IMG/VR virus record: IMGVR_UViG_2861079508_000001
Source of the DNA: a virus
Lineage: Duplodnaviria > Heunggongvirae > Uroviricota > Caudoviricetes
Direction: 5' to 3' (one strand)
Length of the DNA stretch: 64,000 nt
The notes below the pieces were generated by a model. It did no database searches and was not told the origin of the DNA. It saw nothing but the letters and a program-made list of their open reading frames with translations. Of the stretch, positions 4,850-54,009 are shown piece by piece (within the stretch, counting starts at the first letter, position 1; every line of letters begins with the position of its first letter). Both the position numbers and the translations under genes were made by a program.

Positions 4850-6190
4850 TTAGGTAACGTCTAAGATTCGCTCAATGAAGCGCATTTGTTCGAGGTTTTG
4901 TTTAACGCGAATGCTGATCCCTCCCTGCTGGTTACGCGAACCAGCAAAGTAGAGACGAGCCTCTCCTTTCGCTTCTTCTTCTTCGGTTTTGTTGATCGTT
5001 ATTACCAGGTCAGCAATACGTACTTTTTCGATGTTGTCGGCAGCGTGCATCATTGTGGCAACTTCTGACGCGCCACCTTCACGGTTTGTTTGCGACGCCG
5101 TGATACCAGCAACGTTATGCTTGTCATAAAGAGCACGTAAATCGGTGTAGATACTACGAATGTTGGCGCGATCATCACGAAGGTCATAACTGGCACGCAT
5201 CAAATCTGCGTAGTCGACAACAACCATGTCAGGCACCATGCCATTGGCTTTCATACTGTTAAGCATACGGTCCAGATCTGCCGGTGACATACTTCCTGAC
5301 GGACGCTCAACAACCCACAAACTACCAATCCCCTTCGTGGCTCCCAACTCTGCCAACTTGCGATGAACTTCATCGCGCCGTTCCACCAGCTTGGACATTT
5401 CCGTCTCCGACAATCTTGCATCAAAACGGTCGGACAAAATGGTGGTGTGAACCTCCAGCGAGAGATACAGAACATTGTAGCCAGCAAGCGTAGCGTTTAT
5501 GGAAAACTCACCCATTGCGGTCGATTTACCGGATTTAGCAAAACCCATGAAGAGCACCATTTCGCGCTTTGCCCAGCCTTTTTGGTACAGCAATCTATCA
5601 AGCAGAGGGAGTCCAGTTGTAATGCTGTTTGGCACATACTCCTCTGAAGCCTCATATTCACGCGCTTTCAATCGCTCACTTGCGGAGGTGTAGTAGTCAT
5701 AGATTCCGGTCGCTTCGTTCGAGCCTATCTGCTGAACCTTGGCCATGATTGCCATCGCCCCCTGAAAGTCGCCCTTCTCTTTCAGTTCAGCAGCTTTAAT
5801 CAGAGCATCATCAAACGCTACACTTTTTGCGAATGTGGATACCTGGTCAACCATGTACGAGGTATCAGACAATTTTTCTGCAAGGATGCGCTTAAACGCA
5901 GCAACAACATCCGGGAAGAGTTCCTCACGGATGGTCTTATCGCGTTTCGCACGCTTAAGCATATCCAGAATCGCAGATGAAGAAGGCGCGCTCTTGTACA
6001 TACGGTAATAGCCCGAAACCATATTAACCAATATGGCATTGGCCGCATTGGCAAATTGGCTAGGCACAACCAGATCTCCCGCACGAGTAAGAAACTCGTG
6101 ATCACGACAAAAATATGCCGTCAGTCTGTTCTGGAAATCTTCATCAAACTCTTCGGACAGCCCGCGTCCTGTATGGCAAAGTTCGGTCAT
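4850..6190 (-). CDS. DnaB-family replicative DNA helicase
   Basis: RecA-like core with Walker A GFAKSGKST and Walker B-like MVVVDYADLM; 446 aa; immediately upstream of primase. Confidence 0.75.
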   Translation of the reverse strand: MTELCHTGRGLSEEFDEDFQNRLTAYFCRDHEFLTRAGDLVVPSQFANAANAILVNMVSGYYRMYKSAPSSSAILDMLKRAKRDKTIREELFPDVVAAFKRILAEKLSDTSYMVDQVSTFAKSVAFDDALIKAAELKEKGDFQGAMAIMAKVQQIGSNEATGIYDYYTSASERLKAREYEASEEYVPNSITTGLPLLDRLLYQKGWAKREMVLFMGFAKSGKSTAMGEFSINATLAGYNVLYLSLEVHTTILSDRFDARLSETEMSKLVERRDEVHRKLAELGATKGIGSLWVVERPSGSMSPADLDRMLNSMKANGMVPDMVVVDYADLMRASYDLRDDRANIRSIYTDLRALYDKHNVAGITASQTNREGGASEVATMMHAADNIEKVRIADLVITINKTEEEEAKGEARLYFAGSRNQQGGISIRVKQNLEQMRFIERILDVT

Positions 6191-13301: not shown

Positions 13302-16300
13302 TTATTCTTTAGGTGAATTTAACTTCGTTTCAAGCTCCTCAACCCTTTTGGTCAATTGCTGAATATGATGAATGAGTGGTACAACCAAACGCTCATACAT
13401 CACTCCTTCAGCGACCATACCATTTGAGGAAATATCTTCTGGAGAATCATTATTTGTTGGTTCACGCCAATGGACATATTGCGGGGCAATCTCACCAACC
13501 TCTTCAGCAATAAGGCCGTAATACCCCCAATCCTTTCGGTCACCTCGACAAATTGAACGATACCAAACAGGTCTTAATGACAAAAGTTCATCAGCATATC
13601 GATCTTGTAATGTTTCAATATCCTTTTTATAGCGCCTTGAAGAGGTTGAACGCCAAACTGTATTGATACCTGGGTTTGGATCAATGTACATATTGGCACC
13701 GCTAGTAGTTGTGCCAATATCCCATATAGCAAACCCTCCACTACCGCCTGATTTGACAACCAGTGTTTCAGCAATAATATCCAGGTTGCCACTATAGCCT
13801 GTCAGTGATGATCTGCTTGCATAGGAACTTAGAAGGTTTGTTACCTCTGTTTTCGTGTAAGCATTAAGGTTAGCCGCAGTCAAAGTTATATCGGCAGAGC
13901 CATCAAACGCCACACCAGCAATTTTCCTTGCTGTCTGCAATTTTGTGGCGGTTGCGGCATTACCAGTAGTGTTCTGATTACCAGTTGTATTCACACCAGG
14001 GATTGAATCCTTAGCGGTATATACCTGCGCCCACGCTGACCATGCCGCACCTGTGTTATCTCTTCGTGAGCGAATGAAAACTGGCGCATGTGCACCGCTC
14101 GTACCACTCCAGCCAATAAGCAACTCTCCCTCACCAGCAGCACTCGCACCTTTCATGTGCAATACGTTGCCATACATGGTCGGGTAGCTATTGTTGTACG
14201 CCTCGTACATTTGAATGCCAGCAGTGCCTTGAGTAGAGCCGCTTAACGCCGTAACTCGGCCACGAGATACCAATGTATTAATGTTGATATCGCCTGAGCC
14301 ATCAAACTTAACACCATTGATGTTTCTCGCTGTTTGCAACTTCGTAGCTGTTGAAGCATTACCGTTCAAACTACCATTTACGCCACCAGTCACATTTAGT
14401 CCATTACCAATTGATACAGCACCGCTGGTATTATTAATTGTAATAGGTCGCAAACCGTTCCATGAACCTAATGTGTCTCCTGATGCTGTTAGCATGAAAT
14501 ATGTGTTCGATCCATCATTACGGATAAAGAACCCAAAGCTACCGTAAGCAATGCGGAAACCATTTGCATATTTTGAAATGATCTCGCCAGAAGATGTCAA
14601 ACCTCCAGATAATGTACCACCGGTAAGAGGTAATGCACCGACATCAGAGGCTGTTGGTTTGTTTTTCGTGTTATATACTCTTCGCCATCCCGGAGAATAA
14701 TCTGTGCCATTAAATACATAGATAAACTCCGCATTAGTGAGAGCACCAGAGACACTCGTCGTTGTGGCCGTTGTTATACGGATCGTATAATTGTTTGAGC
14801 TACTACCGTTATTAAATACCTCTATAACAGCTCCTGCCAATGGAATAACGCCACAACCAGTTTCACTATTTGGTATGGTTGCACTATTGGCATAGGCCCA
14901 CGCACATCGAGCAATCCATGACTTTGTGTTAAATGCTCCATTATTTTGCAATAACGTCACTAACTGTGCTGTTGTTATTGCTCCGCCATTACTTCCTGTA
15001 GTTAACCAACCAGTAGGAGATGCCGGGCAACCTATATTTGCTGGCGACAAGGAAATATTTGCCGAGCCGTCAAACGACACCCCATTGATAGTACGCGCAG
15101 TCTGCAACTTCGTAGCAGTAGCCGCGTTGCCCGTTGTATTCTGATTACCAGTCGTATTAACACCTGGCAAATTAATATTCGCAGTACCATCAAAGCTCAC
15201 GCCGCCGATAGTTCTTGCCGTCTGAAGTTTTGTAGCAGTTGCAGCATTACCAGTGGTGTTCTGATTACCCGTAGTATTTACACCTGGAAGGTTGATATTT
15301 GCAGAACCGTCGAAACCAACTCCACCGATAGATCTTGCCGTCTGCAATTTCGTTGCTGTACTTGCATTACCATTTAATGTTCCGGTGATCCCACCAGTAA
15401 CAGACAACGGACCTGAAACTGTTCCTCCGGTTGTTGGCAGTGCTCCAATATCTAACGGCGTCGGTTTCTGATGTGTGCTATACATCGTATAAACAACACC
15501 ATCGGTAACGCTGGAAGGCTTACTAGCTGAATATGTTGGCGATGTATAAATAGAAACTGTCGCATTTGCAGTACAATCCCAATGGATATTTACACGAGTC
15601 GCATAATTGCCAATCTCAACGTAAATATCATATGTATCGCCGGATGTGTTGATCCAGGCGAAATTCGTTAATCCGACAGCTGTACGCTTCCACAAAGCAC
15701 CTGTAATCCCTTTGGGGTTTCCATTGCCTGCTCGTAGAACCAGTTCTGAAATGCCTGCCTGATGTGGGGAGCCGACGTTGTAACCAGCGCCACCAATCAA
15801 TGCGATGTAAACGATGGAACTCGCTTGTGGCATGGTAACCGTAGCCAGTTTGAACCACCCTGCCCCGCCAGAGAAAGACATCGTTACTGAATTTAAAGTA
15901 CCAATATCTTTCGGCGTTAATGTGATATCCGCAGTCAGTGCTTTACCGTTAACTTTTCGGTTAGATGGCACCCTGCTATTCGCATTGTCATTGGCTGCTT
16001 TAACTGCTTTTGGCGTTGCGGCCAGCGATTCACTGGTGCTGTCGACAGCACTGCTAAGTTTCACAACACCTTTAGTTGTAAGGCTTGCGTCTTCCATCGC
16101 AACTGCACCGGCAATCTCTTCAGCACGATCAGCAGCAGCTTCCGCACGGGTCGCAGCGGATTCAGCAGCAGTTTTGCTCTGAGATGCTGCCGTCGCACTG
16201 CCTGCCGCCTCTGTTGCTTTCGTGGATGCCGTCGTGGCGCTGCCCTTCGCTGCTGACGCCTGTCTGGTCGCCTCATCTTTTGAAGCAGACGCAGATGATG

Positions 16301-17459
16301 CCGATGACGCTGCCGAACTGGCGGACGATGCGGCTGCCGTTTTTGAGGATTCTGCACGGGTTTCCGACGCTTTCGCGTTCGTTTCGGATGTCTTCGCTGC
16401 GGAAGCAGACCTCGCTGCTGCGCTGGCCTGTTCAGTGGCTTCGCCAGCCTTCGTTGTGGCTGTTGAAGCAGACGATGCGGCACTTTCTGCCGATTTTCCG
16501 GCGGCTGTGGCACTGGCTGAGGCCTGCCCGGCACTTGTTGACGCGGCACTGGCAGACGACGCAGCCGCTGTTTTTGAGCCTGCTGCAGCCGAGGCGCTCT
16601 GTCCCGCTGCCGTTTCAGAAGACTTGGCGTTCGTCTCGGACGTTTTTGCCGCCTTCGCGGAATTTCCTGCCGCCGTTGCCGAGGAAGCTGCGCTACTGGC
16701 GCTCGAGGATGCGTTCGTTTCTGATGATTTCGCTGCCTCTTTTGAGGCCGCCGCATCCCGGGCTGAGGTGGCAGCTTCTGACGCTTTCGTGGTCGCGGTG
16801 GATGCAGAAGTGGCTGCTGATTGTTGTGACGCTGCGGCATTCGTTTCAGATTTTTTCGCAGCAGTTGCACTCGCACTTGCGGCACTTTGTGAGGATGCCG
16901 CAGCGGATGCACTTTGAGACGCTTGAGAGGCTTTTTCTCCAGCGGTATTGGCGCTTTCTGCTGCTGCGGCAGCACTGGCCGCCGCCTCACGAGCTTTGTC
17001 GCCAGCAGCATCAATCGCGTCAGTGTTATTTTTATACCACTCAACGTTTTCGTTGTGCTCGTTGACGATCTGCATTAGCGGCTTAACGGTTACTTCTGAA
17101 CCGTCTTCACGCTCGATTGTCACCTCATCCAGAGCAGTCAACCAACTGCGCATGGACTTGGAATCAGCCGACATACGCGACATTAGTGCTGTAAAGCGCG
17201 CGCTAAACTGTGTTAAGTCGCCTTCATAGGTCGTAATGATTCGGCACGGAACTTCAGACTGAGTTTCGCCGGTATAAGGTTCTGAGAGAACAATGTTCGT
17301 ATCACTGGTTACGCGCTTGATCTCATACAGCTTATTGTCGGGGCCAATGACGATCATCCCCGGCAACACACCATTAGCTGTTACGTTCCAGGCTGTCCCT
17401 GCCCCAACCAGAGTATTGCTGCCCTGTGTAAATGTGATAGTACCTTCCCTGTACCACAT
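13302..17459 (-). CDS. long tail fibre protein with C-terminal intramolecular chaperone (peptidase S74-type) domain
   Basis: 1385 aa; ~280-aa Ala/Ser/Thr-rich low-complexity region; tandem phage-fibre repeats (ASTATKLQTAR.IGGV.FDGSANINLPGVNTTGNQNTT x3-4); C-terminal YGLIAEEVGEIAPQYV-type chaperone motif. Confidence 0.75.
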   Translation of the reverse strand: MWYREGTITFTQGSNTLVGAGTAWNVTANGVLPGMIVIGPDNKLYEIKRVTSDTNIVLSEPYTGETQSEVPCRIITTYEGDLTQFSARFTALMSRMSADSKSMRSWLTALDEVTIEREDGSEVTVKPLMQIVNEHNENVEWYKNNTDAIDAAGDKAREAAASAAAAAESANTAGEKASQASQSASAAASSQSAASASATAAKKSETNAAASQQSAATSASTATTKASEAATSARDAAASKEAAKSSETNASSSASSAASSATAAGNSAKAAKTSETNAKSSETAAGQSASAAAGSKTAAASSASAASTSAGQASASATAAGKSAESAASSASTATTKAGEATEQASAAARSASAAKTSETNAKASETRAESSKTAAASSASSAASSASSASASKDEATRQASAAKGSATTASTKATEAAGSATAASQSKTAAESAATRAEAAADRAEEIAGAVAMEDASLTTKGVVKLSSAVDSTSESLAATPKAVKAANDNANSRVPSNRKVNGKALTADITLTPKDIGTLNSVTMSFSGGAGWFKLATVTMPQASSIVYIALIGGAGYNVGSPHQAGISELVLRAGNGNPKGITGALWKRTAVGLTNFAWINTSGDTYDIYVEIGNYATRVNIHWDCTANATVSIYTSPTYSASKPSSVTDGVVYTMYSTHQKPTPLDIGALPTTGGTVSGPLSVTGGITGTLNGNASTATKLQTARSIGGVGFDGSANINLPGVNTTGNQNTTGNAATATKLQTARTIGGVSFDGTANINLPGVNTTGNQNTTGNAATATKLQTARTINGVSFDGSANISLSPANIGCPASPTGWLTTGSNGGAITTAQLVTLLQNNGAFNTKSWIARCAWAYANSATIPNSETGCGVIPLAGAVIEVFNNGSSSNNYTIRITTATTTSVSGALTNAEFIYVFNGTDYSPGWRRVYNTKNKPTASDVGALPLTGGTLSGGLTSSGEIISKYANGFRIAYGSFGFFIRNDGSNTYFMLTASGDTLGSWNGLRPITINNTSGAVSIGNGLNVTGGVNGSLNGNASTATKLQTARNINGVKFDGSGDININTLVSRGRVTALSGSTQGTAGIQMYEAYNNSYPTMYGNVLHMKGASAAGEGELLIGWSGTSGAHAPVFIRSRRDNTGAAWSAWAQVYTAKDSIPGVNTTGNQNTTGNAATATKLQTARKIAGVAFDGSADITLTAANLNAYTKTEVTNLLSSYASRSSLTGYSGNLDIIAETLVVKSGGSGGFAIWDIGTTTSGANMYIDPNPGINTVWRSTSSRRYKKDIETLQDRYADELLSLRPVWYRSICRGDRKDWGYYGLIAEEVGEIAPQYVHWREPTNNDSPEDISSNGMVAEGVMYERLVVPLIHHIQQLTKRVEELETKLNSPKE
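15050..15420 (-). repeat. tandem ~110-bp coding repeats inside tail fibre gene
   Basis: Encode the repeated ATKLQTAR.IGGV.FDG fibre motif. Confidence 0.6.
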
Positions 17460-39220: not shown

Positions 39221-39242
39221 AGATAATTACCTACCTATCGAG
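39221..39242 (-). promoter_or_regulatory. motif 2 element
   Basis: AGATAATTACCTACCTATCGAG between terminase and portal genes. Confidence 0.4.
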
Positions 39243-40491
39243 AACCACCAAGAATAACACGGTTTTTGACTGGATACCTACGATGTACTGGATAGCCCAA
39301 TGCGTCTGCACTATGCTCAATGCCACCTGTCTTATCCATATCTCGTGTTCCAGGCTTGTAGATGACTTTTTCCAGTGAATCAATCAAATGCTTGCACTTC
39401 GGATCGATATACAACCGGATATCTCCAGATGCGGTCATCAGCATTCGGTTAACAGCATTAACACGATCCGCAATTGGCGGGTGCTTTTTCGAATAATCGA
39501 CACGTAAGAATCCCTTCTCTTTGAATATGTCGACGTCAGACTCCCCGCGAGCATGTTGGCGATAAGCACCTGCCGGATCTGGAAATACCGTTATCTGTGA
39601 TTTCCAGCGCCAGAAGCGTCTCTCAAGCTCATCACAAACCTCTGCCGTGTTAGAGGAAAAGAGCACCAATTCATCAATTGCCCATAGCTCACCATTTGGC
39701 TGAGGTTGCAAAATTACTGAAGACATCGGGTCAATGTTGAAGTCCTGCCCTACCCATATAGGCAACCGAGGGTTGAACTGAAGCGGTTTTACATGCACGT
39801 TACGATCGAACGGGTAGTAAACGCGCCCGGACATGTTCTCAAAGCTCGCCAGGTACTCCTGAGCGAACGATTTCGGGTCCATATCGTTCTTAGCAGCTTC
39901 AATTTCCGCCGTAGGCACAAACGGAGAATCGGCAGTTACAAACTGCCAGCTCTTCCACTGTCCCTTTCTTTGCAGCTCTACGTTCTGGCCTATAGTCCAC
40001 AGTTTGTGAAATTCCGAGAAACCTTTTGGCGTACCAATGATAAGTGCACCGCCGCGTGTCGATGAAAGAGTAGGTCGTAACACCTTGTACCAGGTGTCAG
40101 CCTTCATATCCTGAAATTCATCAAGCACTACAAAATGCAACGCTACGCCGCGCAGAGTGTCAGGCTTATCAGCACCTTTGAGGGCGATCTCCGAACCGTT
40201 CTTCAACACGATTGTCATCGTGGTGTCGTTCTTTTTCCTAACCCACTTACGAGGCAGAACTTCCTGTAGATCGTCCCACAAAATCTGGCGAGCCATCTGG
40301 TAAGTAGGAGCGACATACCAGACCCTTTGCTTTTTTTCCTTTGCCGCCGCACGAATAATAGTGGAGATCGACAACCGGGATTTTCCCCAGCGTCGACCAG
40401 CACAAACAACTTTAAATCGATGCGGAGACTGGAAGACTTTCATCTGTCCAGAATGCAGTTGCACAAGACTGAGCGAGGACGGGATTGCCAT
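39235..40491 (-). CDS. terminase large subunit
   Basis: Walker A VVCAGRRWGKS and Walker B FVVLDEFQD in N-terminal ATPase domain; C-terminal nuclease-like half. Confidence 0.8.
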   Translation of the reverse strand: MAIPSSLSLVQLHSGQMKVFQSPHRFKVVCAGRRWGKSRLSISTIIRAAAKEKKQRVWYVAPTYQMARQILWDDLQEVLPRKWVRKKNDTTMTIVLKNGSEIALKGADKPDTLRGVALHFVVLDEFQDMKADTWYKVLRPTLSSTRGGALIIGTPKGFSEFHKLWTIGQNVELQRKGQWKSWQFVTADSPFVPTAEIEAAKNDMDPKSFAQEYLASFENMSGRVYYPFDRNVHVKPLQFNPRLPIWVGQDFNIDPMSSVILQPQPNGELWAIDELVLFSSNTAEVCDELERRFWRWKSQITVFPDPAGAYRQHARGESDVDIFKEKGFLRVDYSKKHPPIADRVNAVNRMLMTASGDIRLYIDPKCKHLIDSLEKVIYKPGTRDMDKTGGIEHSADALGYPVHRRYPVKNRVILGGSR

Positions 40492-41595: not shown

Positions 41596-42486
41596 TTATG
41601 CCGGTAAAGCAATTTCTAACGGTTTATCCAAAGGTTGTTTGTCGAATGCCAGCAGTGGCAGCGTGTCAGGCAGTCGACGACCAAAGTCAGGGTTTCGATA
41701 CACCCCATACAACGGAGACGTAAAGCTCAGGTTGTGAATGTCCTTGAGCAACTTCACAATGCAGGCCTCGTCCACCAGACTGTCGGCAATGTCCTGAATC
41801 GTCGTGCCACGATTCCGCCCAGCTTTTGCCAGGGAACTGTTCTTGTGGTAGTCCGCCACCAGATCACGCAGTGCACGGCGACGACGAGACTCGCTCATTG
41901 CGAACAACTCTTTGACGATCGCCTCGTTATCACCCGGGTCGGAACGGAAATGGCGCTGGAATACACGCAGTGCACTTTCATAGCTCTTCGGTCGCTCAGG
42001 GCGGATGAACTTAAACCCTGCTTTCATGGCGAAGGGATTGTATTTGCTCATCGAGGACTGGATCTCAATGATTGGCCGGTCATGCATCCTGCTAACCAGG
42101 TTAATCATTCGATAAGAGACGCCTACGCCACGATACTGAGTATCCACAACTGAGCGACTGATCACCGCAAAGTTGTTATTCACGTACCGACCCCAGTACT
42201 GGTTAGCCACGGTGGTATTAGTGGTTGGTTTCAACTTAGGAAACATGCGGTGGCGAGGTGCCAACAGTAGTTTCGGGTAAGCCATAACCACGACGCCCAC
42301 CAGACGGTCATCAAGTTCGCAGCGATAGTAAGTTGGCGCGAAAGGTTTGCCGTCTGTTTTGTAGTGAAGCGACTTAAGAGCGTGCCAGTCCTCTACAGTT
42401 CCCTTTGTAACAGTCATTCGCTCCAGAAAGTCCAGATGACGCGGAAACTCTTCAGGGCGGTAGCGTTTAATGATGATGTCCGTCAT
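41596..42486 (-). CDS. GNAT-like acyltransferase-fold protein (function unknown)
   Basis: Segment VVDTQYRGVGVSYRMINLV...NPFAMKAGFKF resembles GNAT acetyl-CoA binding motifs A/B; 296 aa with long extensions; 4-bp overlap with upstream gene. Confidence 0.4.
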   Translation of the reverse strand: MTDIIIKRYRPEEFPRHLDFLERMTVTKGTVEDWHALKSLHYKTDGKPFAPTYYRCELDDRLVGVVVMAYPKLLLAPRHRMFPKLKPTTNTTVANQYWGRYVNNNFAVISRSVVDTQYRGVGVSYRMINLVSRMHDRPIIEIQSSMSKYNPFAMKAGFKFIRPERPKSYESALRVFQRHFRSDPGDNEAIVKELFAMSESRRRRALRDLVADYHKNSSLAKAGRNRGTTIQDIADSLVDEACIVKLLKDIHNLSFTSPLYGVYRNPDFGRRLPDTLPLLAFDKQPLDKPLEIALPA

Positions 42487-43148
42487 GAATGGACCTCATC
42501 GTGACTACCATTGTGATATTCCACCTTCACGCGTTCTTTGTAGTGCTTGGTGATCTGCATATCCGGGCGCAGCGCGTTCTTCAGGTCTTCGTGAGTCGTC
42601 GCCACCATTACCGTCGCACCAACCTTTCGAGCGGCACGCTGGAGGTTAGACGCCACAACCTGAGCGGTTACACGGTCGAGAACAGCGCCGAACTCGTCAG
42701 CAGCCCACACTTTAGCGCCTGACTCAATCAGTTTGGCAATCTTGAGACGATATTTCTGGCCGTCTGACATTTCAGAAGGCTTGCGAACAAACAGATATGC
42801 ATCGTTCAGACCAGCCATAGATAACAACCCAAGCGCATCACTGGTCGTTTTGCCCAACTGATCGATGACGTTAACCTCATTATCGAAGGTAAAATCATCG
42901 ATGGAGGCTACAGACAGCCCTTCATCCTTCATCTGTCGTTGCAACTCGCGCAGCACAACGGATTTGCCGGAACCGGATTGGCCGGTGATGTACACCACAT
43001 CGCCCTGCTTCACTTCCAGCTCCAGATTGTCGTAAAGCGTCCACTCTTTTTCGTCCAGGCCAAGCCCGAACGACTCAGCGATTTCCAACGTGCGCGTGGT
43101 TTTATTTACGCGTGTCTGAAACGATACGTTGATGATGTATTTGCTCAT
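42483..43148 (-). CDS. soluble ABC-type ATPase
   Basis: Walker A GQSGSGKS, ABC signature MSDGQKYRL, Walker B VWAADEF, H-loop TTHED; no transmembrane domain. Confidence 0.6.
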   Translation of the reverse strand: MSKYIINVSFQTRVNKTTRTLEIAESFGLGLDEKEWTLYDNLELEVKQGDVVYITGQSGSGKSVVLRELQRQMKDEGLSVASIDDFTFDNEVNVIDQLGKTTSDALGLLSMAGLNDAYLFVRKPSEMSDGQKYRLKIAKLIESGAKVWAADEFGAVLDRVTAQVVASNLQRAARKVGATVMVATTHEDLKNALRPDMQITKHYKERVKVEYHNGSHDEVHS

Positions 43149-43813
43149 GCAGCCATCTCCCCGGAAGAGATCTTCTCCGCATATGCCACAAATGCGTCTA
43201 CCCCGCTTTCTCCCGTCATTTCTTCCATGTGGGCAAGCAAATCACCAACAACAATGGCAGAGCCAGCAGGGAGCGTTTTAAAGCCCAATACGTCGACAAC
43301 ACGTACTTCTTCCGCTGCAACTTCACGACTGATCTCGGTGTGTTCATCCTTCTGTCGTTTAGTTTCTTCGCCAAGATCGATAACTAGCGAGTCGGTGTCC
43401 ATTTCTTCTGTCATACTGCCAACGAGAACATTCAACTCACGCTCTTCAAAGCCGAAAACCTCGATATCGTCCAGAACAAGCGACTCAAGCTCTTTCTGTA
43501 GCTTAATTGCATCGTAATCAATGCTGGCAAGTCGGTTATCTTCAAGGCGCTTCGCACGAACCTCGTCATCACTGAGATCATCGCGAACAATAACCGGTAC
43601 GCGCTCAAGTCCAGCAAAAATTGCAGCCTCACGGCGGCCGTGGCCAGTAATAATTACGTCGTTCTTATCGACCGTAATTGGCTGGTCAAATCCGCGCTTT
43701 TTAATGGCTGCGGCTAGATCTCGGATCTGCTGTTCATCATGCTTTTTGGCATTCATCTCATAGGGAATAAGATCTGCCGGGTCGCGATATACGATTTCAA
43801 ACTTTTTGGTCAT
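43145..43813 (-). CDS. ParB-like nuclease-domain protein
   Basis: ITGHGRREAA motif (ParB/Srx box); start set at ATG overlapping upstream stop (TAATG). Confidence 0.55.
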   Translation of the reverse strand: MTKKFEIVYRDPADLIPYEMNAKKHDEQQIRDLAAAIKKRGFDQPITVDKNDVIITGHGRREAAIFAGLERVPVIVRDDLSDDEVRAKRLEDNRLASIDYDAIKLQKELESLVLDDIEVFGFEERELNVLVGSMTEEMDTDSLVIDLGEETKRQKDEHTEISREVAAEEVRVVDVLGFKTLPAGSAIVVGDLLAHMEEMTGESGVDAFVAYAEKISSGEMAA

Positions 43814-44493
43814 TACATACGCTCCTTGTAGTAGTCGACCAGCCACACCAGAGCCTCACCAGCGTTCTCCATTTCATTACCGGTGTTAATAGCCTGCTCT
43901 TTGATGATGTTTTTTATGGTTTCTGCAACACGATCTGACGCATCGAAAGTTACTTTGAAGCGCATGGTCTGATGTTCCGCACCCACACGTTCGGTTTTCT
44001 CTCGTTTGTCGGTATCGACAGGCTCATCACTACCACGAGACAACGCCTCCAGTGCTTCAAGGTCGATTGCCGCCTCTTTTGCTAAAACCATCGAGATTTC
44101 GTCGTCATACGGGGCGATTTCAGACAGTTGATAGTCAAGTTCTGACTGAATTTCTTCAATGAAGCGTTGCAATGCGATTTGGTCGTCTTCACCGTATCGC
44201 TCGTTGTCCACCAGTGACATCTGTTTAGCTACGACATCGCTAATTTTGCCCACAGAAAGCACCGGAACCGTTGAAATTCCTTGCTCAATAGCAGCACGCC
44301 AGCGATGTTCGCCGCCGAGGATTTCAAAAAATCCATCTTCAAGTTCACGAGCCAAAATTGGCTTAAAAAAGCCCAATTTTTCGATAGAACCTTTCAGTTT
44401 TTCAAAATTCTGCGCACCAACCGAATTGGTGTTCCAGGTATTCGGGCGAAGGTTGGCAACATCAACCTGCAAAATCGTGATTTTTACATCCAT
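43813..44493 (-). CDS. ParB-like nuclease-domain protein
   Basis: LRPNTWNTN and ILGGEHRWRAA motifs (ParB N-terminal domain boxes); start set at first ATG. Confidence 0.6.
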   Translation of the reverse strand: MDVKITILQVDVANLRPNTWNTNSVGAQNFEKLKGSIEKLGFFKPILARELEDGFFEILGGEHRWRAAIEQGISTVPVLSVGKISDVVAKQMSLVDNERYGEDDQIALQRFIEEIQSELDYQLSEIAPYDDEISMVLAKEAAIDLEALEALSRGSDEPVDTDKREKTERVGAEHQTMRFKVTFDASDRVAETIKNIIKEQAINTGNEMENAGEALVWLVDYYKERM

Positions 44494-44507
44494 TTTATTG
44501 CTACAAT

Positions 44508-44536
44508 ACACTAAGTAACCACTTACTTATTATAAT
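44508..44536. promoter_or_regulatory. motif 2 element in divergent intergenic region
   Basis: ACACTAAGTAACCACTTACTTATTATAAT between ParB-like gene start and helicase gene. Confidence 0.45.
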
Positions 44537-44575
44537 AGCCAAATAACATACAAAAGGCACTAAGGAAAGAGGTTT

Positions 44576-46135
44576 ATGACTGTTCGGATTGTATCTAACG
44601 CAGTAAATGCGCTTATTTCTGGCGCAGATGACAAGGTAAAGCAACTGGTGCAGCAAATGTTGAGCTACGAAGTCGAGACTGGCGACTGGAAGGGCACAAG
44701 CACGATGTTCAACTGGAGTAAAAACTCGTTCCCTGCTGGCTTTGCCAAGCCTGTAGCGGCGAACTTGAACAAGGCGGGCATCAAATGTGTTCATATCCGC
44801 AAAGACAAAGCCCCGGCGCTTGGTAAACCAAATCCGGCGGTTAACCCATTCCCATACAATCCTGATTATGCGTATCAGGATCAGACTGTGGAAACACTGG
44901 TTCGAGAGGGAATGATGATTGCGCAGATCGCTACTGGTGGCGGGAAATCTAACGTTGCCTGCAAAGCAGCTGCACGTATCGGTCGAATGACATTATTTTT
45001 AACAACCCGCTCTGTTCTGATGTTTCAAATGGCCGAAAACTTCCAGAGATCCATCGACTACCGCGCCGAAAATGGCGAACCGTGGTTAAAAGACCAAAAG
45101 GTTGGAGTCATTGGCTCGGGTGAGTTCCAGGTATCACGACATATCAACGTCGCTACAGTTCAAACTCTTGCAAGTTTCCTCGAAGAACCACCACGCGATG
45201 CAACACCAGATAAGAAAAGCTACCACCTCAAACGTCGGGAGTTGGTGAAACGCTTCCTTTCAAGTGTCTCTCTTCTTATTCTGGAAGAGGCGCATGAGTC
45301 TTCAGGCTCAAATTTCTATGACATCGCCAGATTATGTGTGAACGCAGACTATCGTCTGGCGCTTACAGCCACGCCGTTCATGAAGGATTCGACGGAAGCC
45401 AACATGCGCCTGATGGCGGTGGCCGGGCGAATTGAAATTAAAGTCACAGAAAAGTACCTGATTGATCGAGGCATTCTGGCAAAGCCGTACTTCCTTTATC
45501 ATAAAGTTGCCTACAAGCCAGACGAGGCCAGAATCAAGGCCGAACTTGCCAACAAACACCTCAATTTTAGAGTTGGTATGAGCACCGCCTACCAAAAGGC
45601 TTATCAGTTGGGGATCGTGTATAATTTGGGACGTAACGAGGCCATTGTTCGCGAAGCATTGCTCTATAAGCAACATTCTCTCAATTGTATGACTCTGGTT
45701 CGTCTTAAACGCCACGGGCAAATCCTGATGGAAATGATGAAAGAGTCCGGCCTTAGAGTTGACTTCATCTATGGGGAATCTAACCAGGCGACAAGGCAAG
45801 CAAAGCTGAACAGTTTAGCGTCTGGAGAAATAGATGTTTTAATAGGCTCGACTATTCTGGATGTCGGTGTTGATGTGCCAAGCGTTGGTGCGGTCATTCT
45901 TGCTGGTGGTGGGAAAGCAGAAGTTGAAATGAGGCAGCGTGTCGGTCGTGGCTTACGAGCCAAAAAAAATCAGGCAAACGTGTGTTTTATCACTGATTTC
46001 ATTGACATTAGCAACAAATACCTGTTGTCTCACTCTTATGAGCGAAAACACATCATCGACACCACACCTGGCTTTGCAGAAGGTGTATTGCCTATTGATG
46101 GAGCATTCGATTTTGGAGTTCTGAAACGAGATTAG
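44576..46135 (+). CDS. superfamily-2 DNA/RNA helicase
   Basis: Motif I ATGGGKS, motif II LEEAHE, motif III LTATP, motif VI QRVGRGLR; 519 aa; RBS AAGGAAAGAGG upstream. Confidence 0.7.
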   Translation: MTVRIVSNAVNALISGADDKVKQLVQQMLSYEVETGDWKGTSTMFNWSKNSFPAGFAKPVAANLNKAGIKCVHIRKDKAPALGKPNPAVNPFPYNPDYAYQDQTVETLVREGMMIAQIATGGGKSNVACKAAARIGRMTLFLTTRSVLMFQMAENFQRSIDYRAENGEPWLKDQKVGVIGSGEFQVSRHINVATVQTLASFLEEPPRDATPDKKSYHLKRRELVKRFLSSVSLLILEEAHESSGSNFYDIARLCVNADYRLALTATPFMKDSTEANMRLMAVAGRIEIKVTEKYLIDRGILAKPYFLYHKVAYKPDEARIKAELANKHLNFRVGMSTAYQKAYQLGIVYNLGRNEAIVREALLYKQHSLNCMTLVRLKRHGQILMEMMKESGLRVDFIYGESNQATRQAKLNSLASGEIDVLIGSTILDVGVDVPSVGAVILAGGGKAEVEMRQRVGRGLRAKKNQANVCFITDFIDISNKYLLSHSYERKHIIDTTPGFAEGVLPIDGAFDFGVLKRD

Positions 46136-46137
46136 TT

Positions 46138-46416
46138 ATGAGCGAAAAGAAAACAACTTATTGTCAGGTAGCATTGTCTGATAAGGCCAATGACAAACTT
46201 GGAAAGTTTCAAGTGAAACTAAAAGAAAAAAATATCAAAATGTCTAAGGCTGAAGTCATAAATACCATTCTGGAACAATTGACAATGGCCGACTTTGACA
46301 AGGTTATATCTTCTGTCGGGGCTTCCGCTAAGACTCGTGAGAAAATCATGCGTATCTATGAGAACTCTAATATGACAAAGGAAGATCTCGAAACGCTATT
46401 AAGCAGATTAAAATAA
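46138..46416 (+). CDS. hypothetical small protein
   Basis: 92 aa starting 3 nt after helicase stop; charged helical; possible DNA-binding. Confidence 0.4.
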   Translation: MSEKKTTYCQVALSDKANDKLGKFQVKLKEKNIKMSKAEVINTILEQLTMADFDKVISSVGASAKTREKIMRIYENSNMTKEDLETLLSRLK

Positions 46417-46484
46417 TCACGCTATCAATTAGGGAGACAAAGATGAAGTCTCCCATACTGTTCACTTTCTGTTCTAAAACTATC

Positions 46485-46907
46485 ATGAAATACTCGCTTC
46501 TCCCTCTACTAACGTTACCAGTGTTGATGCTTACCGCGTGCCAATCACGCCCAATATCAATCCATGACGCCAAACCAGCACCGCAGGCCAAAGTGTTCAA
46601 GTATCAAAGCGCAGCGCCAGCTACGTTGGTGGTAATGAGAGACACAGGTTTTGTAGGAGCTGGATGTGATGCTTCCATTTTCATCAACGGCGAAACTGTC
46701 GCAAAACTGGCTACAGGCGAAAAAGCGACTTTCCATTTAAATGCCGGAGAATTAATTGTGGGTGCATCTCTTGAAGGTGCAGGTTTATGTGCTCTAAACC
46801 CCGCTCGTCAAGAGCGAGAAACGACTCTGAAGAATGGAGACACAAAAGCGTTCAGGGTGTTCACCAGCAATTCTGGTGACATCGACATTCTGCCAACAAC
46901 TCTGTGA
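46485..46907 (+). CDS. putative lipoprotein
   Basis: Internal start gives signal peptide MKYSLLPLLTLPVLMLTAC with lipobox LTAC. Confidence 0.5.
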   Translation: MKYSLLPLLTLPVLMLTACQSRPISIHDAKPAPQAKVFKYQSAAPATLVVMRDTGFVGAGCDASIFINGETVAKLATGEKATFHLNAGELIVGASLEGAGLCALNPARQERETTLKNGDTKAFRVFTSNSGDIDILPTTL

Positions 46908-46911
46908 TGAC

Positions 46912-47436
46912 ATGACAACCAAAGATATTACCTACGGTATCCAAGCTGAACTCTGGCCGCGAGATTACACTAACGTTGAAAAACTACTGATGTTCTGGCG
47001 CAGAGAACAAATTCCTGTAAGGGTCACTCTCGAAGATGGCCAGGCGTTTTGCATGTACGTTTATGGCCTCATGCCATCTCGTAACAAAGTTGACCTTTGC
47101 CCAGCCCCTTTTGACAAAGAAAATCGTATAAGGCTCCCACTTGAACGCATTAGTACAATTGAATCAGGTGTGGTTGACAGTATCGCTCACGATTTCAAAG
47201 GTCGACTAACAGTTCACCCTGATTATGTCGATAATCGGCCATCACGCCGCGATTTTTTTGCAATTTGCAACCAAGCCTACAAAGCAAACAAATCTATAAG
47301 GGTGTACATGGCGGATGGCCGTGAAATTGAGGGGGTGTCAGCAGGCGCAGATGCTTGTCAGGTTACACTACGTGTCGAGAACGGTAGAAAAATAGTTGTT
47401 TTGTTCGATTGGGTTGAACGAATTTTGCCTTTTTGA
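46912..47436 (+). CDS. hypothetical protein
   Basis: Start trimmed to first ATG after upstream stop; ~175 aa. Confidence 0.4.
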   Translation: MTTKDITYGIQAELWPRDYTNVEKLLMFWRREQIPVRVTLEDGQAFCMYVYGLMPSRNKVDLCPAPFDKENRIRLPLERISTIESGVVDSIAHDFKGRLTVHPDYVDNRPSRRDFFAICNQAYKANKSIRVYMADGREIEGVSAGADACQVTLRVENGRKIVVLFDWVERILPF

Positions 47437-47439
47437 GTT

Positions 47440-47748
47440 ATGAAATCGATATTGTTACCACCATTATTTTTACTTTGCTCAGTTACGGCAAATGCAATGG
47501 ACTATAAGCCTGTCATTCAGTCGCTGATGAATGACGTGTGCTCAACGTCTCAGAATGTATCAGTTTGCATGTATCAATTTTCGGCAGCCGTAAAAGCAGG
47601 AAAAGCGATAGGTGAGAATGTGGAACTGTGTAAGAAAGTGGCAAATGAAGAAAGGGCAATGTTGGATTGCGAATCTAGCGAGTCATCGGCACAGTTCGTT
47701 GATGCGCTATTTGACACCAATCGTAAGGCTGTAGAGTCTGTTCAATAA
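47440..47748 (+). CDS. small secreted Cys-containing protein
   Basis: Signal peptide MKSILLPPLFLLCSVTANA; 4 further Cys; followed by hairpin terminator. Confidence 0.5.
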   Translation: MKSILLPPLFLLCSVTANAMDYKPVIQSLMNDVCSTSQNVSVCMYQFSAAVKAGKAIGENVELCKKVANEERAMLDCESSESSAQFVDALFDTNRKAVESVQ

Positions 47749-47760
47749 ATCTATAAGGTT

Positions 47761-47790
47761 AATAACCGGCTAAGTCCGGTTATTATTTTT
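47761..47790 (+). terminator. rho-independent terminator after gene 47440..47748
   Basis: AATAACCGG-CTAAGT-CCGGTTATT followed by ATTTTT. Confidence 0.55.
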
Positions 47791-48030
47791 CACATCACTT
47801 CTTTATATCTACAAATCAAATAACCTAAATATATATAAGGTCTAAAGCCGCAATCGATTATTTATTTAGGGAACACCTTCGACGATCTCGCTTTTATTTC
47901 TAGGACTTTCATCCCTGCAAAAAATTTTAAAAAACACTTGCAATCTATTTTCGCGTATCGATAATTGAGCTCGTCGAAAGCGAAGACGCTAACGACAATA
48001 AATTTTAAATTTACATAAGGAAAAATTATC

Positions 48031-48681
48031 ATGGCTAACATTATCATTTCTAAAAAATCCATCATTGAAGCTGCTTCCATTGTATCCGATGAACTGCGCG
48101 AAAAAGCAGATCTGGCAACTCAAACATATAACGAACATTATAAAAATGGTACGCACACTAAAGCAGACAAAGCAAATATGCAAGCTGCGACCACTAAACT
48201 TGCTTACTTCATCAACAACGTCGTAAACGCAGTAGAAGACGAAAAATTATGCTCTGTTTTCTACTATGCGATTAAAGCAAGCAAACAAGCGCCAGAAGTA
48301 TTTTTCCGTGATGCAATGACTAATAGTTATTCTCTGGAAAAACTGGTTTATCTGGTTAAATCAATTAAATCTGGTAAATGCGTTTATTCCATCGCTGATA
48401 TGTCAGGATCTCGTGTATTCGCTTTAATCGATATGATTAACGACGAGATCGACACGTTCACCAATGGCGCTGTTTTCGATTTAATGAATGAAGCTAAAAA
48501 AGCGTGCGAAATTAAATTGGACGCTGGCTATACTCAAGCCAACCAGTTGATCAATCTTTGCGAACGTCTTGGACTTGTTGAGAAAGTCAAAGGAATGGGA
48601 AGCGCAAAAGCTGGTACACAGCAATATCGCTTTATCAAGAATGATTTCTACAATTATTTAGCTGATGCTTTTAAAGCGTAA
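48031..48681 (+). CDS. hypothetical protein
   Basis: 216 aa; preceded by TTGCAA-N16-GATAAT promoter-like sequence and followed by GCGCCCACTATGGGCGC hairpin. Confidence 0.5.
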   Translation: MANIIISKKSIIEAASIVSDELREKADLATQTYNEHYKNGTHTKADKANMQAATTKLAYFINNVVNAVEDEKLCSVFYYAIKASKQAPEVFFRDAMTNSYSLEKLVYLVKSIKSGKCVYSIADMSGSRVFALIDMINDEIDTFTNGAVFDLMNEAKKACEIKLDAGYTQANQLINLCERLGLVEKVKGMGSAKAGTQQYRFIKNDFYNYLADAFKA

Positions 48682-48692
48682 TTAATGGAATC

Positions 48693-48713
48693 AAGCGCCC
48701 ACTATGGGCGCTT
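48693..48713 (+). terminator. hairpin terminator (GCGCCCACTATGGGCGC) after gene 48031..48681
   Basis: Same hairpin reused at 49192-49217; short T-run. Confidence 0.45.
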
Positions 48714-48731
48714 TAAAGGAGCTTTAAAAAA

Positions 48732-48935
48732 ATGGTCAGCTATGACAAGATCCGCGCAAAGTATCGCGCAAAGTATCGCGCTTATAAACTGGAATTAATC
48801 GATGATTTGATCGCGCAACGCGACCAATTAAATTTTACGTTTTCTGATTTGCTTAACAGCAAGCGAGATTGCAAGCGCAAACGTGAATACTTACGTTTAA
48901 GCGCATTAATCGGAAAACTTCAAAATTCTATTTAA
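48732..48935 (+). CDS. hypothetical small basic protein
   Basis: 67 aa; contains direct DNA repeat CGCGCAAAGTAT x2 near its 5' end. Confidence 0.35.
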   Translation: MVSYDKIRAKYRAKYRAYKLELIDDLIAQRDQLNFTFSDLLNSKRDCKRKREYLRLSALIGKLQNSI

Positions 48936-48956
48936 TTTTTTTTAAGGAGCTTAATC

Positions 48957-49187
48957 ATGTTTGTTCTTATCGCTGGCGTTAACGTCCATAATGAATATTA
49001 TGTTAATCGCATCGCTGGGATCGCTGGTTACGCTGGGCGCGCAGTCGAGCTTATAGATGAAACGACGCGCAAAATTGACTTATTGAGCGACCAGGAGCGA
49101 AAAAAAGCAGACGTGAACGACGCTGATATATTTTTAATGTTAAAAGCGTTTGTAGAAATGGGATTTAAAATCAGTTTACACAAATAA
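48957..49187 (+). CDS. hypothetical small protein
   Basis: 76 aa; RBS AAGGAG upstream; strong terminator downstream. Confidence 0.4.
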   Translation: MFVLIAGVNVHNEYYVNRIAGIAGYAGRAVELIDETTRKIDLLSDQERKKADVNDADIFLMLKAFVEMGFKISLHK

Positions 49188-49191
49188 AATC

Positions 49192-49217
49192 GAGCGCCCA
49201 CTATGGGCGCTTTTTTT
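49192..49217 (+). terminator. rho-independent terminator after gene 48957..49187
   Basis: GCGCCCACTATGGGCGC followed by TTTTTTT. Confidence 0.65.
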
Positions 49218-49238
49218 CGTTTCCAATACACCTACCAT

Positions 49239-49266
49239 AACGCGCCATCATTGGCGCGTTTTTATT
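49239..49266 (+). terminator. second tandem terminator
   Basis: ACGCGCCA-TCAT-TGGCGCGT followed by TTTTTATT. Confidence 0.55.
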
Positions 49267-49659
49267 GTCTTTAACTCACTCCAACAACATAAAAATAAGC
49301 GCCAAAATAACGCCATAGACGCGCTTTTATATCCTTACCAGTACATGCCCATTACTTAACACATTAACGCGCTTAAAACGCATTATATTGCGCTATAGAG
49401 TATGGTTAATCATTGGCTTTTAGTCTTGCTATGTGATCCGCGTTTATTTGTCGGTGCGGATCGGCATTTTGTTTTGTTCTGTATCCGCTCGCGTATTATG
49501 TGCGCGTAATTTTTCACATAATCACACCACTTAATCACGTATGTGATTATGCTACGAAAGAAATCTGGATGTCTCAGGCGACGAAAGTCATCATAATTTC
49601 CCCCGCTCACCTGTCCGACAACCGCTGGTTGGATTCCACCAGCTTCCCGATGTTTTTTC

Positions 49660-52950: not shown

Positions 52951-53049
52951 GGCTGACCGTAGGGGTGTTACGGGGGATAAAATCAGGAGTTGAATAAATA
53001 CGAAAAAGGAGGCGACACCCCTCCTTCCCTCCCCACTTATACATACCTG

Positions 53050-53900
53050 GCTTCTTCGCTATACATGTTGTGTTTTATCTGTCTCAACCTCTCTATAGGC
53101 GTTAATGCTCACTCCTTCCAGAATGTTCTATACGGCAACTATTTCTGTTGGTGAATTGGGTGTGTTGTTCTCTCTGTCGGTGTATGTGGTTTCGTTCGTT
53201 TTGCGGTGGTTCTTCTATGGGGTGTTCTCGTCGTTTTGGTGATTGTTCTTCTCCGTGTATGGAGTAATGGCAGGTGGGCGATTCCTTTCGTTGTTGTGTT
53301 TGAGTTGTTTGTCTGGAGTGTGTGAAAGGCTTTTGCAGTTATTCGTGTATTGGGTAATGGCATTTCCCGTGATTGTTGTGTTTCGTGTCTTTTGGGATTG
53401 AGAGAAACCTTGCGGTTACAGGCTTCGTTGGGGTTTCAGTGATTCTGGTGTTCTTCGCTGTTTGGGGAATGGCGTGTCGTGGGTATCGCGCGTATGAATG
53501 TTTTCGGATTGCCTGTGAAAGTTAGGTTGGTTGTCCGGTAGCCTGGGGAGAAGAGGTGGGTCTTTTCGGTAGCCTGCCATAAAGAGGTTGGTTGTTTTTG
53601 GAAATGGCATTTGTGTTATTTAGTTGTTTTGTTATGCCTGAAAATAAGTTGTTTATATGGTTGTGTAACGCAACGGGAGCGATTTTGAGCGTGTGTTTTT
53701 GTTGGTAGTGTGTTGGGTCGTCTGTGGTGAAAATTGGACGCTGTGGCGCTGTCTGCTGCGTAGAGTTACGGGTATAAGCAGTGATGTGTGAAAACGTCAA
53801 TTTTTTAGACCAAATCGGGTGAAAGCGTTGATGTTTCGTTGATCTGTTATTCAGTTGTTTTCTTGATTGTATAAACAACTATAACTTATTGATATTTAAG
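53050..53900 (+). repeat. GT-skewed non-coding region with periodic GGnTAATGGCA-type repeats
   Basis: Plus strand almost exclusively G/T-rich; recurring TGGAGTAATGGCAGG, TTGGGTAATGGCATTT, GGGGAATGGCGTG, TGGAAATGGCATTTG at ~85-130-bp spacing; also CGGTAGCCTGGGGAGAAGAGGTGGGT duplicated and related to 50400-50430. Confidence 0.5.
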
Positions 53901-54009
53901 GATGTGATTGCGGGTATGGAAGAAGAGTAGTGGCGATCAACGGATTCTTATAGAAAAGAATCAAATTGTGACCGCCATTATCAACTGATTGATTTGTTTA
54001 CTTGTGTAG

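Follow-up and report, generated by a model that had tools for sequence, protein, structure and literature searches.

FljA, the Salmonella protein that is the closest described relative of our main subject, binds the 5′ leader of the fliC mRNA. Other systems also offer points of comparison: in phage T4 a small gene, UvsW.1, lies downstream of the helicase gene uvsW, and FinO, an RNA-binding regulator of F-like plasmids, has the FinO/ProQ fold. In the Salmonella loci that we examined, fljA closes a canonical order of hin, the flagellin gene fljB and fljA, with hin in either orientation; FljA is reported to be a post-transcriptional repressor of fliC. Here we compare these systems with a block of five plus-strand genes (44576-47748) in a 64,000-nucleotide stretch of the IMG/VR virus record IMGVR_UViG_2861079508_000001 (Caudoviricetes); this whole stretch is referred to below as the window. 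With a probability that we put at about 0.6, the block is an operon that belongs to the conserved backbone of an SSU5/pHCM2/pMT1-type phage-plasmid, is expressed in the lysogen, has two cargo slots within it, and encodes a recombination helicase and an RNA-binding translational repressor.

Nucleotide identity and synteny with relatives lead us to assign the window to an SSU5/pHCM2/pMT1-type phage-plasmid of Escherichia coli. Escherichia phage CMS-2020a matches region 44400-47900 over its full length at 98.8% identity, and Salmonella phage SSU5 does so at ~79%; the match to Escherichia phages Cyrano and PhiR41_1 is restricted to the first 57% of the region, at 96-97%. The gene order of the locus is common to the annotated relatives, namely SSU5, Cyrano, Yersinia pestis pMT1 and several Klebsiella plasmids. 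As a preliminary description of this DNA had stated, the five genes are tightly packed (successive gaps of 2, 26-68, 4 and 3 nucleotides, nt), diverge from the minus-strand late operon, here the ParB/terminase genes, and end in a terminator, which is a strong one. All five were assigned to PHROG families (E 1e-46 to 1e-100), and the ratio of non-synonymous to synonymous substitution rates (dN/dS) is 0.01-0.25 between relatives, where dS is unsaturated, in the three genes tested (those for the helicase, a 92-residue protein and the FljA-like protein); on these two grounds we take the five open reading frames (ORFs) to be real genes and not chance ORFs.

The putative repressor is the product of the fourth gene (46912-47436, plus strand; 174 residues), which starts 4 nt past the stop codon of a lipoprotein gene. 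It belongs to phrog_1444 (E 2e-100), matches Pfam PF03614 (Flag1_repress) with 281.7 bits against a cut-off of 24 across profile positions 1-170 of 170, and is 36% identical over 171 residues (E 1e-37) to P0081, a sequence that NCBI names ‘phase 1 flagellin gene repressor FljA’. We class it, from these alignments, as a full-length member of the FljA family. The preliminary description had named the other four products and left this one, the most informative, unnamed. A mechanically called 200-residue ORF from 46834 overlaps the lipoprotein gene; homologues begin at the equivalent of 46912. The same start bears on a deposited record: SSU5_121, the FljA-like gene of SSU5 (L001 5877-6403), is annotated with 148 residues from position 5957 of L001, and the conserved N-terminus MTNITDITYG... 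begins at 5877, ~4-5 nt past the lipoprotein stop, so that the deposited annotation appears to be short by 26 codons.

The resemblance to Salmonella FljA (both that of hin-fljB-fljA and FljA-z66 of plasmid pBSSB1) extends to the same Pfam family with a full-length match, to length (174 residues in the window and 179 in FljA), and to invariant motifs at the N-terminus and in both halves; the RNA-binding fold is presumably also the same. The genetic setting is different: the window gene lies neither downstream of a flagellin gene nor near an invertase. The gene directly upstream encodes a lipoprotein, not a flagellin, a tblastn search with E. coli FliC as the query gave no significant match in the window, and no Resolvase or other recombinase domain was detected among the ten genes around the locus. 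Conversely, we found no phage-plasmid remnants beside Salmonella fljA. Also unlike Salmonella FljA, the window gene is a core gene of its phage-plasmid family, including those members that reside in non-flagellate hosts, and exists as many deeply diverged alleles that are exchanged by recombination.

Our structure model of the FljA-like protein contains two tandem Sm/Hfq-like domains, each of which consists of an N-terminal helix and then an antiparallel sheet of five strands with a strong bend. The duplication is visible in the model alone; the sequence repeat between the halves is not significant. Each half of the model therefore has the fold of Hfq and the bacterial Sm-like chaperones, and there is a weak Pfam Hfq signal of 19.1 bits, which lies under the family cut-off of 27; a Providencia relative scores 26.1 bits and carries the NCBI name ‘RNA chaperone Hfq’. 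The protein departs from Hfq in its extra conserved N-terminal motif (modelled with low confidence) and in having two Sm-like domains per chain, because of which an Sm ring, if one forms, would need three chains and not six. A sequence search of the PDB found no FljA structure. Bearing in mind that a tandem Sm/Hfq-like model fits the reported post-transcriptional repression of fliC by FljA, we consider that the FljA-like protein is probably an RNA-binding translational repressor: it would bind RNA and repress translation post-transcriptionally, as Salmonella FljA does on the fliC leader. FinO offers an analogy, as another case of a mobile element that encodes its own small RNA-binding protein to control the translation of a specific mRNA; the difference is that FinO has a FinO/ProQ domain rather than an Sm domain, and no antisense RNA partner was identified for the FljA-like protein.

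The gene's distribution is that of a backbone gene. A profile search of 1.84 billion representative proteins returned 30 FljA-family relatives at E <= 0.001; the canonical Salmonella cluster aside, the full-length clusters with checkable context lie either on contigs of ~104-112 kb (Klebsiella, Xenorhabdus, Providencia) or behind a helicase gene and a small ORF. The FljA-like gene is present in 830 PLSDB records and the helicase gene in ~822 (at least 60% identity), with near-equal numbers in Klebsiella (341 and 346, respectively), Escherichia (228 and 227), Enterobacter (92 and 92), Yersinia (62 and 62) and Cronobacter (10 and 10), these counts being matched by genus. We judge from them that the gene is close to universal in enterobacterial members of the family. 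Klebsiella pneumoniae is classically non-flagellate.

A second feature of this gene is the divergence of its alleles. The FljA-like proteins are 55-83% identical where the helicase is 82-99% identical and the product of a downstream 216-residue gene 84-97% identical. Among three Klebsiella plasmids with a helicase dS of 0.003-0.011, the FljA-like genes have a dN of 0.18-0.30 and a dS that ranges from 0.7 to saturation; between the window and Cyrano, dS is 0.08 for the helicase gene and 1.36 for the FljA-like gene. Alignment by blastn of L009 with L012 and with L013, and of the window with Cyrano, delimits a divergent tract that comprises the slot upstream of the FljA-like ORF (slot 1), the ORF itself and, where it is occupied, the slot downstream (slot 2); homology then returns at ~90-95% at or just before the conserved terminator. 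The break is clean in two Klebsiella pairs (L009 vs L012, L009 vs L013). Throughout, dN/dS of the FljA-like gene is low, 0.08-0.25 wherever measurable and 0.08-0.11 between the E. coli, Salmonella and Klebsiella alleles; the value for E. coli and Klebsiella (0.08) equals that for E. coli and Salmonella (0.08), and there is no relaxation of the Klebsiella allele. We read these comparisons as a shuffling of old alleles, each of them under purifying selection, among backbones that are almost identical. One pair within a divergent Klebsiella lineage has 13 non-synonymous and 8 synonymous changes, clustered in the second Sm-like domain, with almost none in the flanking genes.

Evidence that the block is expressed in the lysogenic state comes from a sibling element, phage Cyrano, which in the adherent-invasive E. 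coli strain LF82 is the plasmid pLF82 (each record has 108,379 bp). Identity to the window proteins is 99% for its helicase and 78% for its FljA-like protein. Published expression values for Cyrano (Table S1, PMC9928086; log2(fpkm+5), from fragments per kilobase per million) cover overnight culture in lysogeny broth (LB) and four conditions, B1, B6, MB1 and MB6, which we read from their labels as macrophage-medium cultures and intramacrophage bacteria. According to that table, the values in overnight LB and in the other four conditions are, respectively, 5.0-5.9 and 7.2-8.4 for the helicase gene (CYRAN_118), 6.3-7.2 and 8.6-9.9 for the small protein gene (CYRAN_117), 4.7-5.0 and 7.9-9.4 for a minus-strand lipoprotein gene in slot 1 (CYRAN_115), and 4.2 and 6.9-8.1 for the FljA-like gene (CYRAN_114). 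The flanking genes are low: 2.3 and 3.1-5.2 for the ParB gene (CYRAN_119), and 2.3-2.8 and 2.8-5.7 for the downstream gene (CYRAN_113). In view of this difference, the block is transcribed in the lysogenic state of Cyrano while the flanking late genes are silent, a moron-like pattern of expression. The authors of PMC9928086 themselves list CYRAN_117 as a moron, expressed 12-fold over background in the lysogen.

The first gene of the block (44576-46135, plus strand; 519 residues) is identified from its sequence as encoding a UvsW/XPB-like helicase of superfamily 2 (SF2), and it is a backbone gene of SSU5-type phage-plasmids. The complete set of SF2 motifs previously noted is present, and in an alignment of 31 sequences they fall in invariant or near-invariant columns: I (ATGGGKS, residues 119-125), II (EEAH, 237-240), III (TAT, 264-266) and VI (QRVGRGLR, 454-461). 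The protein has the Pfam domains ResIII, DEAD and Helicase_C, belongs to phrog_16 (‘DNA helicase’, E 2e-93), and is modelled with two RecA-like lobes at a pLDDT (predicted local distance difference test) of 90. The solved structures nearest to it by sequence are archaeal XPB (E 2e-12) and T4 UvsW (E 5e-08). A Pfam scan did not detect the UvsW_N domain (PF21241) directly in the window helicase; this domain is found in full-length homologues at 48-51% identity, with 34.2 and 27.9 bits against a cut-off of 25.3, and this supports the alternative once offered for this gene, a UvsW-like recombination helicase. Besides UvsW_N in these homologues, the likeness to T4 UvsW includes the SF2 core, a DExH-type motif II and a small ORF immediately 3′ of the helicase gene; on the other hand, structural alignment gives 16-18% identity between the two proteins, and the window helicase adjoins ParB-like and terminase genes rather than a T4-type replication cluster. 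The match to XPB/Rad25, the archaeal and eukaryotic repair and transcription helicases, is confined to the two RecA-like lobes, and their biological context is another one. By analogy with T4 UvsW, the helicase would probably act on forks, R-loops and recombination intermediates, remodelling these branched DNAs as the element replicates or recombines.

The second gene (46138-46416, plus strand; phrog_1466, E 5e-46) starts 2 nt past the helicase stop and encodes 92 residues. It follows the helicase gene in all loci, and a similar-sized ORF does so in distant relatives. The protein evolves fast (35-86% identity), yet its dN/dS of 0.04-0.08 denotes purifying selection. It has no Pfam relative and no match in the PDB, either by phmmer at E <= 10 or by profile search, and the phmmer search of the PDB likewise detected no UvsW.1-like relative; the protein might work with the helicase or regulate it. 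A ribbon-helix-helix pattern was seen by eye, and an hhalign comparison with a CopG sequence was in register at a probability of 2%; since neither this comparison nor the PDB profile search gave support, we do not claim that fold.

The position of these two genes is fixed. The helicase is 91-99% identical across enterobacterial loci, and a 42%-identical version is found in 153 Acinetobacter plasmids; in every relative examined the helicase and small genes are in the same place, divergent from ParB-ParB-ABC-terminase. This holds for an Acinetobacter plasmid, a metagenome-assembled genome (MAG) of Methylomicrobium and a 99-kb metagenomic contig, in which ParB-ParB-ABC-ATPase-...-terminase lie on one strand and the helicase with a ~100-residue ORF on the other, followed by genes for dihydrofolate reductase (DHFR) or an HD-phosphohydrolase. 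As judged by this conservation of order, the helicase and 92-residue genes belong to the backbone and not to an accessory island. The preliminary description had proposed that the whole block is such an island, and the fixed position of the first two genes, even in Acinetobacter and Methylomicrobium, speaks against this; it is near the arrangement, namely helicase orthologues kept within the replication modules of relatives, that the description had itself named as contrary to its proposal. Its view of the set as moron-like holds for the lipoprotein and Cys-protein genes, which are variable (420 and 258 plasmid records, set against ~830 for core genes), but not for the helicase, 92-residue and FljA-like genes.

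Where readings of the block separate is the target of the FljA-like protein. We propose that it is more likely to act on the element's own or other non-flagellar RNAs than solely on host flagellin, although it may still cross-repress fliC in flagellated hosts. Such RNAs are favoured because of the purifying selection in non-flagellate hosts, the reported function of flagella in LF82 and the cassette-like exchange of alleles; we rate them as somewhat more probable targets than host fliC, which as the main target seems to us doubtful. The competing explanation is lysogenic conversion of motility, in which the protein is the product of a true moron, binds the host fliC leader and shuts off flagellin, with the benefit of lower cost, less adsorption of flagellotropic phages or less detection by TLR5. 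Its attractions are the full-length homology and common motifs with FljA, the fact that most host genera are flagellated (Escherichia, Salmonella, Enterobacter, Citrobacter, Cronobacter), the position between cargo slots that hold envelope genes, and transcription of the Cyrano orthologue in the lysogen, up 8-15-fold outside overnight LB. These must be set against the intact gene in the 341 Klebsiella records, under the same purifying selection as elsewhere (dN/dS 0.08), its retention in divergent Klebsiella-borne clusters as well, and the lack in the element of a flagellin partner gene that would require silencing of fliC. Furthermore, in LF82, which carries Cyrano and transcribes the gene, roles of the flagella are documented: a review states that they contribute to LF82 adhesion and invasion. 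S. Typhi CT18, which carries pHCM2 and belongs to a serovar typed H:d, likewise speaks against the conversion of motility. All considered, we hold it to be possible but unlikely.

A number of observations weigh against the reading that we prefer, that of a backbone operon with a repressor of non-flagellar RNAs. The characterised members of the family are limited to Salmonella FljA and FljA-z66, both of which act on fliC mRNA, and plasmid pBSSB2 with fljA-z66 rendered motile E. coli non-motile; FljA-type proteins can therefore act across species, and for both reasons host fliC is a serious candidate target. The motifs most conserved in the window protein, DI[ST]YG..AE[VI]WPRDY, PSRRD[FY]F.IC and FDWV.RI, are those that it has in common with FljA. 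The co-variation expected of a cognate operator is not seen, as homology returns at the terminator regardless of the allele: in two Klebsiella pairs, the region 3′ of the FljA-like gene, which takes in the terminator and the next gene's promoter and leader, is 91-95% homologous from the terminator onwards. A search of the window for sequences like the fliC leader gave chance 9-12-mers only and no candidate cognate RNA. The parity of the FljA-like and helicase counts holds by genus and not record by record, and in the literature we found no experiment on any of the five genes in any SSU5-type element. Lysogen transcription is predicted equally by a moron or defence interpretation, and because the PADLOC-DB v2 that we used dates from 2023, defence systems newer than this would be missed.

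We also entertain, more tentatively than the operon reading itself, a wider hypothesis for the origin of the family: that FljA proteins are primarily phage-plasmid regulators with tandem Sm domains (double Hfq) that act on their own or non-flagellar transcripts, that the alleles are specificity cassettes (serving, for example, hetero-immunity or competition between co-resident elements), and that Salmonella FljA is a domesticated offshoot that was recruited into the hin-fljB switch. A phage-plasmid origin is favoured by three considerations: the family is tiny and most full-length clusters are on ~104-112 kb contigs; in non-flagellate Klebsiella the gene persists under purifying selection; and in a neighbour-joining tree canonical FljA is placed between phage-plasmid-borne clades, a split that recurs in 173 of 200 bootstraps. 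The root of that tree is not resolved, and the direction of transfer between FljA and the phage-plasmid family is for this reason unsettled.

The remaining two genes occupy the cargo slots. That in slot 1 (46485-46907, plus strand) encodes an outer-membrane-type lipoprotein, 140 residues from the conserved start (phrog_890 ‘lipoprotein’, E 9e-52); there is an upstream in-frame ATG with a good Shine-Dalgarno sequence at 46443. Its signal peptide, MKYSLLPLLTLPVLMLTAC, has the lipobox L-T-A-C, with Gln at +2; the directly read sequence MKYSLLPLLTLPVLM-L-T-A-C conforms to the pattern [LVI][ASTVI][GAS]C. In the SSU5 orthologue the start is at the corresponding MK and the lipobox is I-T-A-C. The gene in slot 2 (47440-47748, plus strand; phrog_9536, E 6e-55), which starts 3 nt past the FljA-like gene and sits between the FljA-like stop and the family's conserved terminator, encodes a predicted secreted (periplasmic) protein of 102 residues, with a signal-peptidase site (A-N-A) following residue 19 and, in the mature part, four Cys; a homologue in one Klebsiella plasmid is annotated ‘putative periplasmic protein’. 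The lipoprotein gene is missing from Cyrano and the Klebsiella loci, in which other genes occupy the slot; across relatives, slot 1, which follows the small gene and precedes the FljA-like gene, is either empty or taken by unrelated genes, some of them on the opposite strand. Slot 2 is mostly empty in relatives, and the 4-Cys gene is absent from the 13 related loci compared. The two genes are gained and lost independently of each other. Taken together, their distribution marks them, in our assessment, as the sole true accessory genes of the block: they appear exchangeable and, to go by their localisation signals, might act at the cell surface, for example in receptor masking.

The variable genes suggest an explanation in which just these two are morons that modify or mask the envelope, for instance by blocking a receptor against superinfection, while the rest is backbone. 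Temperate phages do carry small receptor-blocking lipoproteins, of the kind of T5 Llp and phi80/N15 Cor. The patchy spread, the unrelated occupants of the slots in relatives (among them another membrane lipoprotein in Cyrano, CYRAN_115, which is transcribed in the lysogen) and the export signals of both cargo proteins all fit such a role. Against it, we found no similarity to characterised exclusion proteins, although no comparison aimed at them was made, and PADLOC and Pfam were silent on these genes, save for a weak, sub-threshold DUF2846 match of the lipoprotein. Moreover, in the window element, SSU5 and pMT1 the lipoprotein and FljA-like genes are tightly coupled, with 4 nt between them, so that a functional link between those two is also possible. 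We regard this envelope-moron explanation as no better than tentative.

Another suggestion is that the five genes jointly serve defence or exclusion as an accessory island, with the helicase as an anti-phage motor and the envelope proteins as a block to superinfection. Lysogen expression and the envelope targeting of the two variable genes are compatible with it, and in the PADLOC scan the helicase gave partial matches to type IV restriction helicases and to PbeA (E 7e-23, over model positions 253-635 of 672). We rejected the suggestion as highly improbable: these matches cover the generic SF2 core alone, the other four genes had no PADLOC match or noise (E>0.005) with no PbeB-D-like partners, the highly conserved helicase keeps its place beside nucleotide-metabolism genes in Acinetobacter and Methylomicrobium, the FljA-like gene is near-universal, and the components do not co-vary as a unit.

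The block as a whole is mostly ordinary: phage-plasmids with 99% identity to it have been deposited, and in public entries the helicase, the lipoprotein and a “repressor of phase-1 flagellin” can already be found by name. The FljA homologue is a modestly interesting lead that lends itself to direct testing, and the rest is largely annotated already. What gives that lead some weight is the great frequency of SSU5/pHCM2/pMT1-type elements in clinical E. coli, Klebsiella, Salmonella Typhi and Yersinia pestis, and the fact that nearly all of these elements carry a stand-alone, lysogen-transcribed homologue from a family whose one known activity is translational repression of flagellin. If host fliC is the target, these plasmids would modulate motility and flagellin exposure in pathogens; if the target is their own RNA, the protein would represent a novel type of regulator in phage-plasmids and hint at the source of the Salmonella phase-variation repressor. 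In either case, the tandem Hfq-like model offers a concrete, if predicted, structural basis for RNA binding by FljA proteins.

Transcription signals can be read at both ends of the block. The 64 bp between the minus-strand ParB-like gene and the helicase gene (44512-44575) form a putative divergent promoter region, with a perfect TATAAT at 44531-44536 and a Shine-Dalgarno sequence, AAGGAAAGAGG, ahead of the helicase ATG; there is a further promoter-like match at 44483-44512. An intrinsic terminator (47760-47785, plus strand), with a 10-bp stem, a 6-nt loop and a T-run, closes the operon. It is kept in 12 related loci, in which it stands directly 3′ of the FljA-like gene; the most divergent (L011) has another stem sequence in the same place.

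Beyond the terminator, a strongly conserved non-coding block (47826-47915; AATATATATAAGG...TTATTTATTTAGGnAACACCTTCGA...TTTATTTCTAnGACTTT) extends towards the next promoter and is found in all twelve loci, including the most divergent. On its minus strand the window could encode a 16-residue peptide, the start codon of which is not conserved. The next promoter-like sequence, TTGCAA-16-GATAAT (47938-47965), lies upstream of the conserved 216-residue gene (48031-48681, phrog_1513), and the leader of ~65 nt between them (47966-48030) opens with a conserved two-step hairpin at 47973-47996, GUCG-AA-AGCG-AAGA-CGCU-AA-CGAC. Across relatives, A-U is replaced by G-C in its outer stem and G-C by A-U in its inner stem, and the most divergent lineage has another hairpin in the same place; it does not co-vary with the FljA-like allele. 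The hairpin could be an RNA element or a palindromic operator. An Rfam scan of 44000-49500 at E <= 1 gave nothing meaningful.

On the other side of the block, the minus strand between the helicase and terminase genes (41596-44511) carries a module that encodes two ParB_N proteins, an ABC-type ATPase and a 296-residue protein and is kept as far as Acinetobacter and Methylomicrobium; the large terminase gene is at 39235-40491, ~4 kb upstream of the block. The Cyrano orthologue of the 296-residue protein (41596-42486) is annotated ‘MK0520 protein, ABC-type ATPase fused to a predicted acetyltransferase domain’, and PADLOC gave partial matches of the module to mad3/mad8 and ParB-fused methyltransferases. 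The module could serve packaging, partition or DNA modification. In the Methylomicrobium-type relatives, a Tad2-like gene (PF11195) lies within it beside the helicase (L017 4437-4727, L018 4437-4760), and the large gene of the terminase region there contains an intein with a LAGLIDADG endonuclease.

Elsewhere in the window, segment 55105-58396 contains a full methionyl-tRNA synthetase gene, metG, on the minus strand, with apbC/mrp divergent from it; the two are neighbours on the E. coli chromosome as well. The GC content of the segment is host-like at 0.51, whereas its surroundings have ~0.45. In Cyrano, PhiR41_1 and many E. coli plasmids of the same kind the pair is annotated, but the SSU5 annotation under the match lacks it, and for this reason the segment looks like a lineage-specific capture of host genes. 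A further stretch of ~1 kb (53000-54000) is without a convincing ORF; it has an extreme strand bias (GC skew of +0.31, AT skew of -0.34) and several degenerate direct repeats of 17-37 nt, with no tandem array. It may represent an origin or an iteron-like region, or else be transcribed as a long non-coding RNA. Finally, positions 16001-17000, inside a minus-strand ORF of 1385 residues (13302-17459), have a GC content of 0.595, an AT skew of -0.34 and one short repeat of 21 nt, and may correspond to a compositionally distinct domain of a tail protein.

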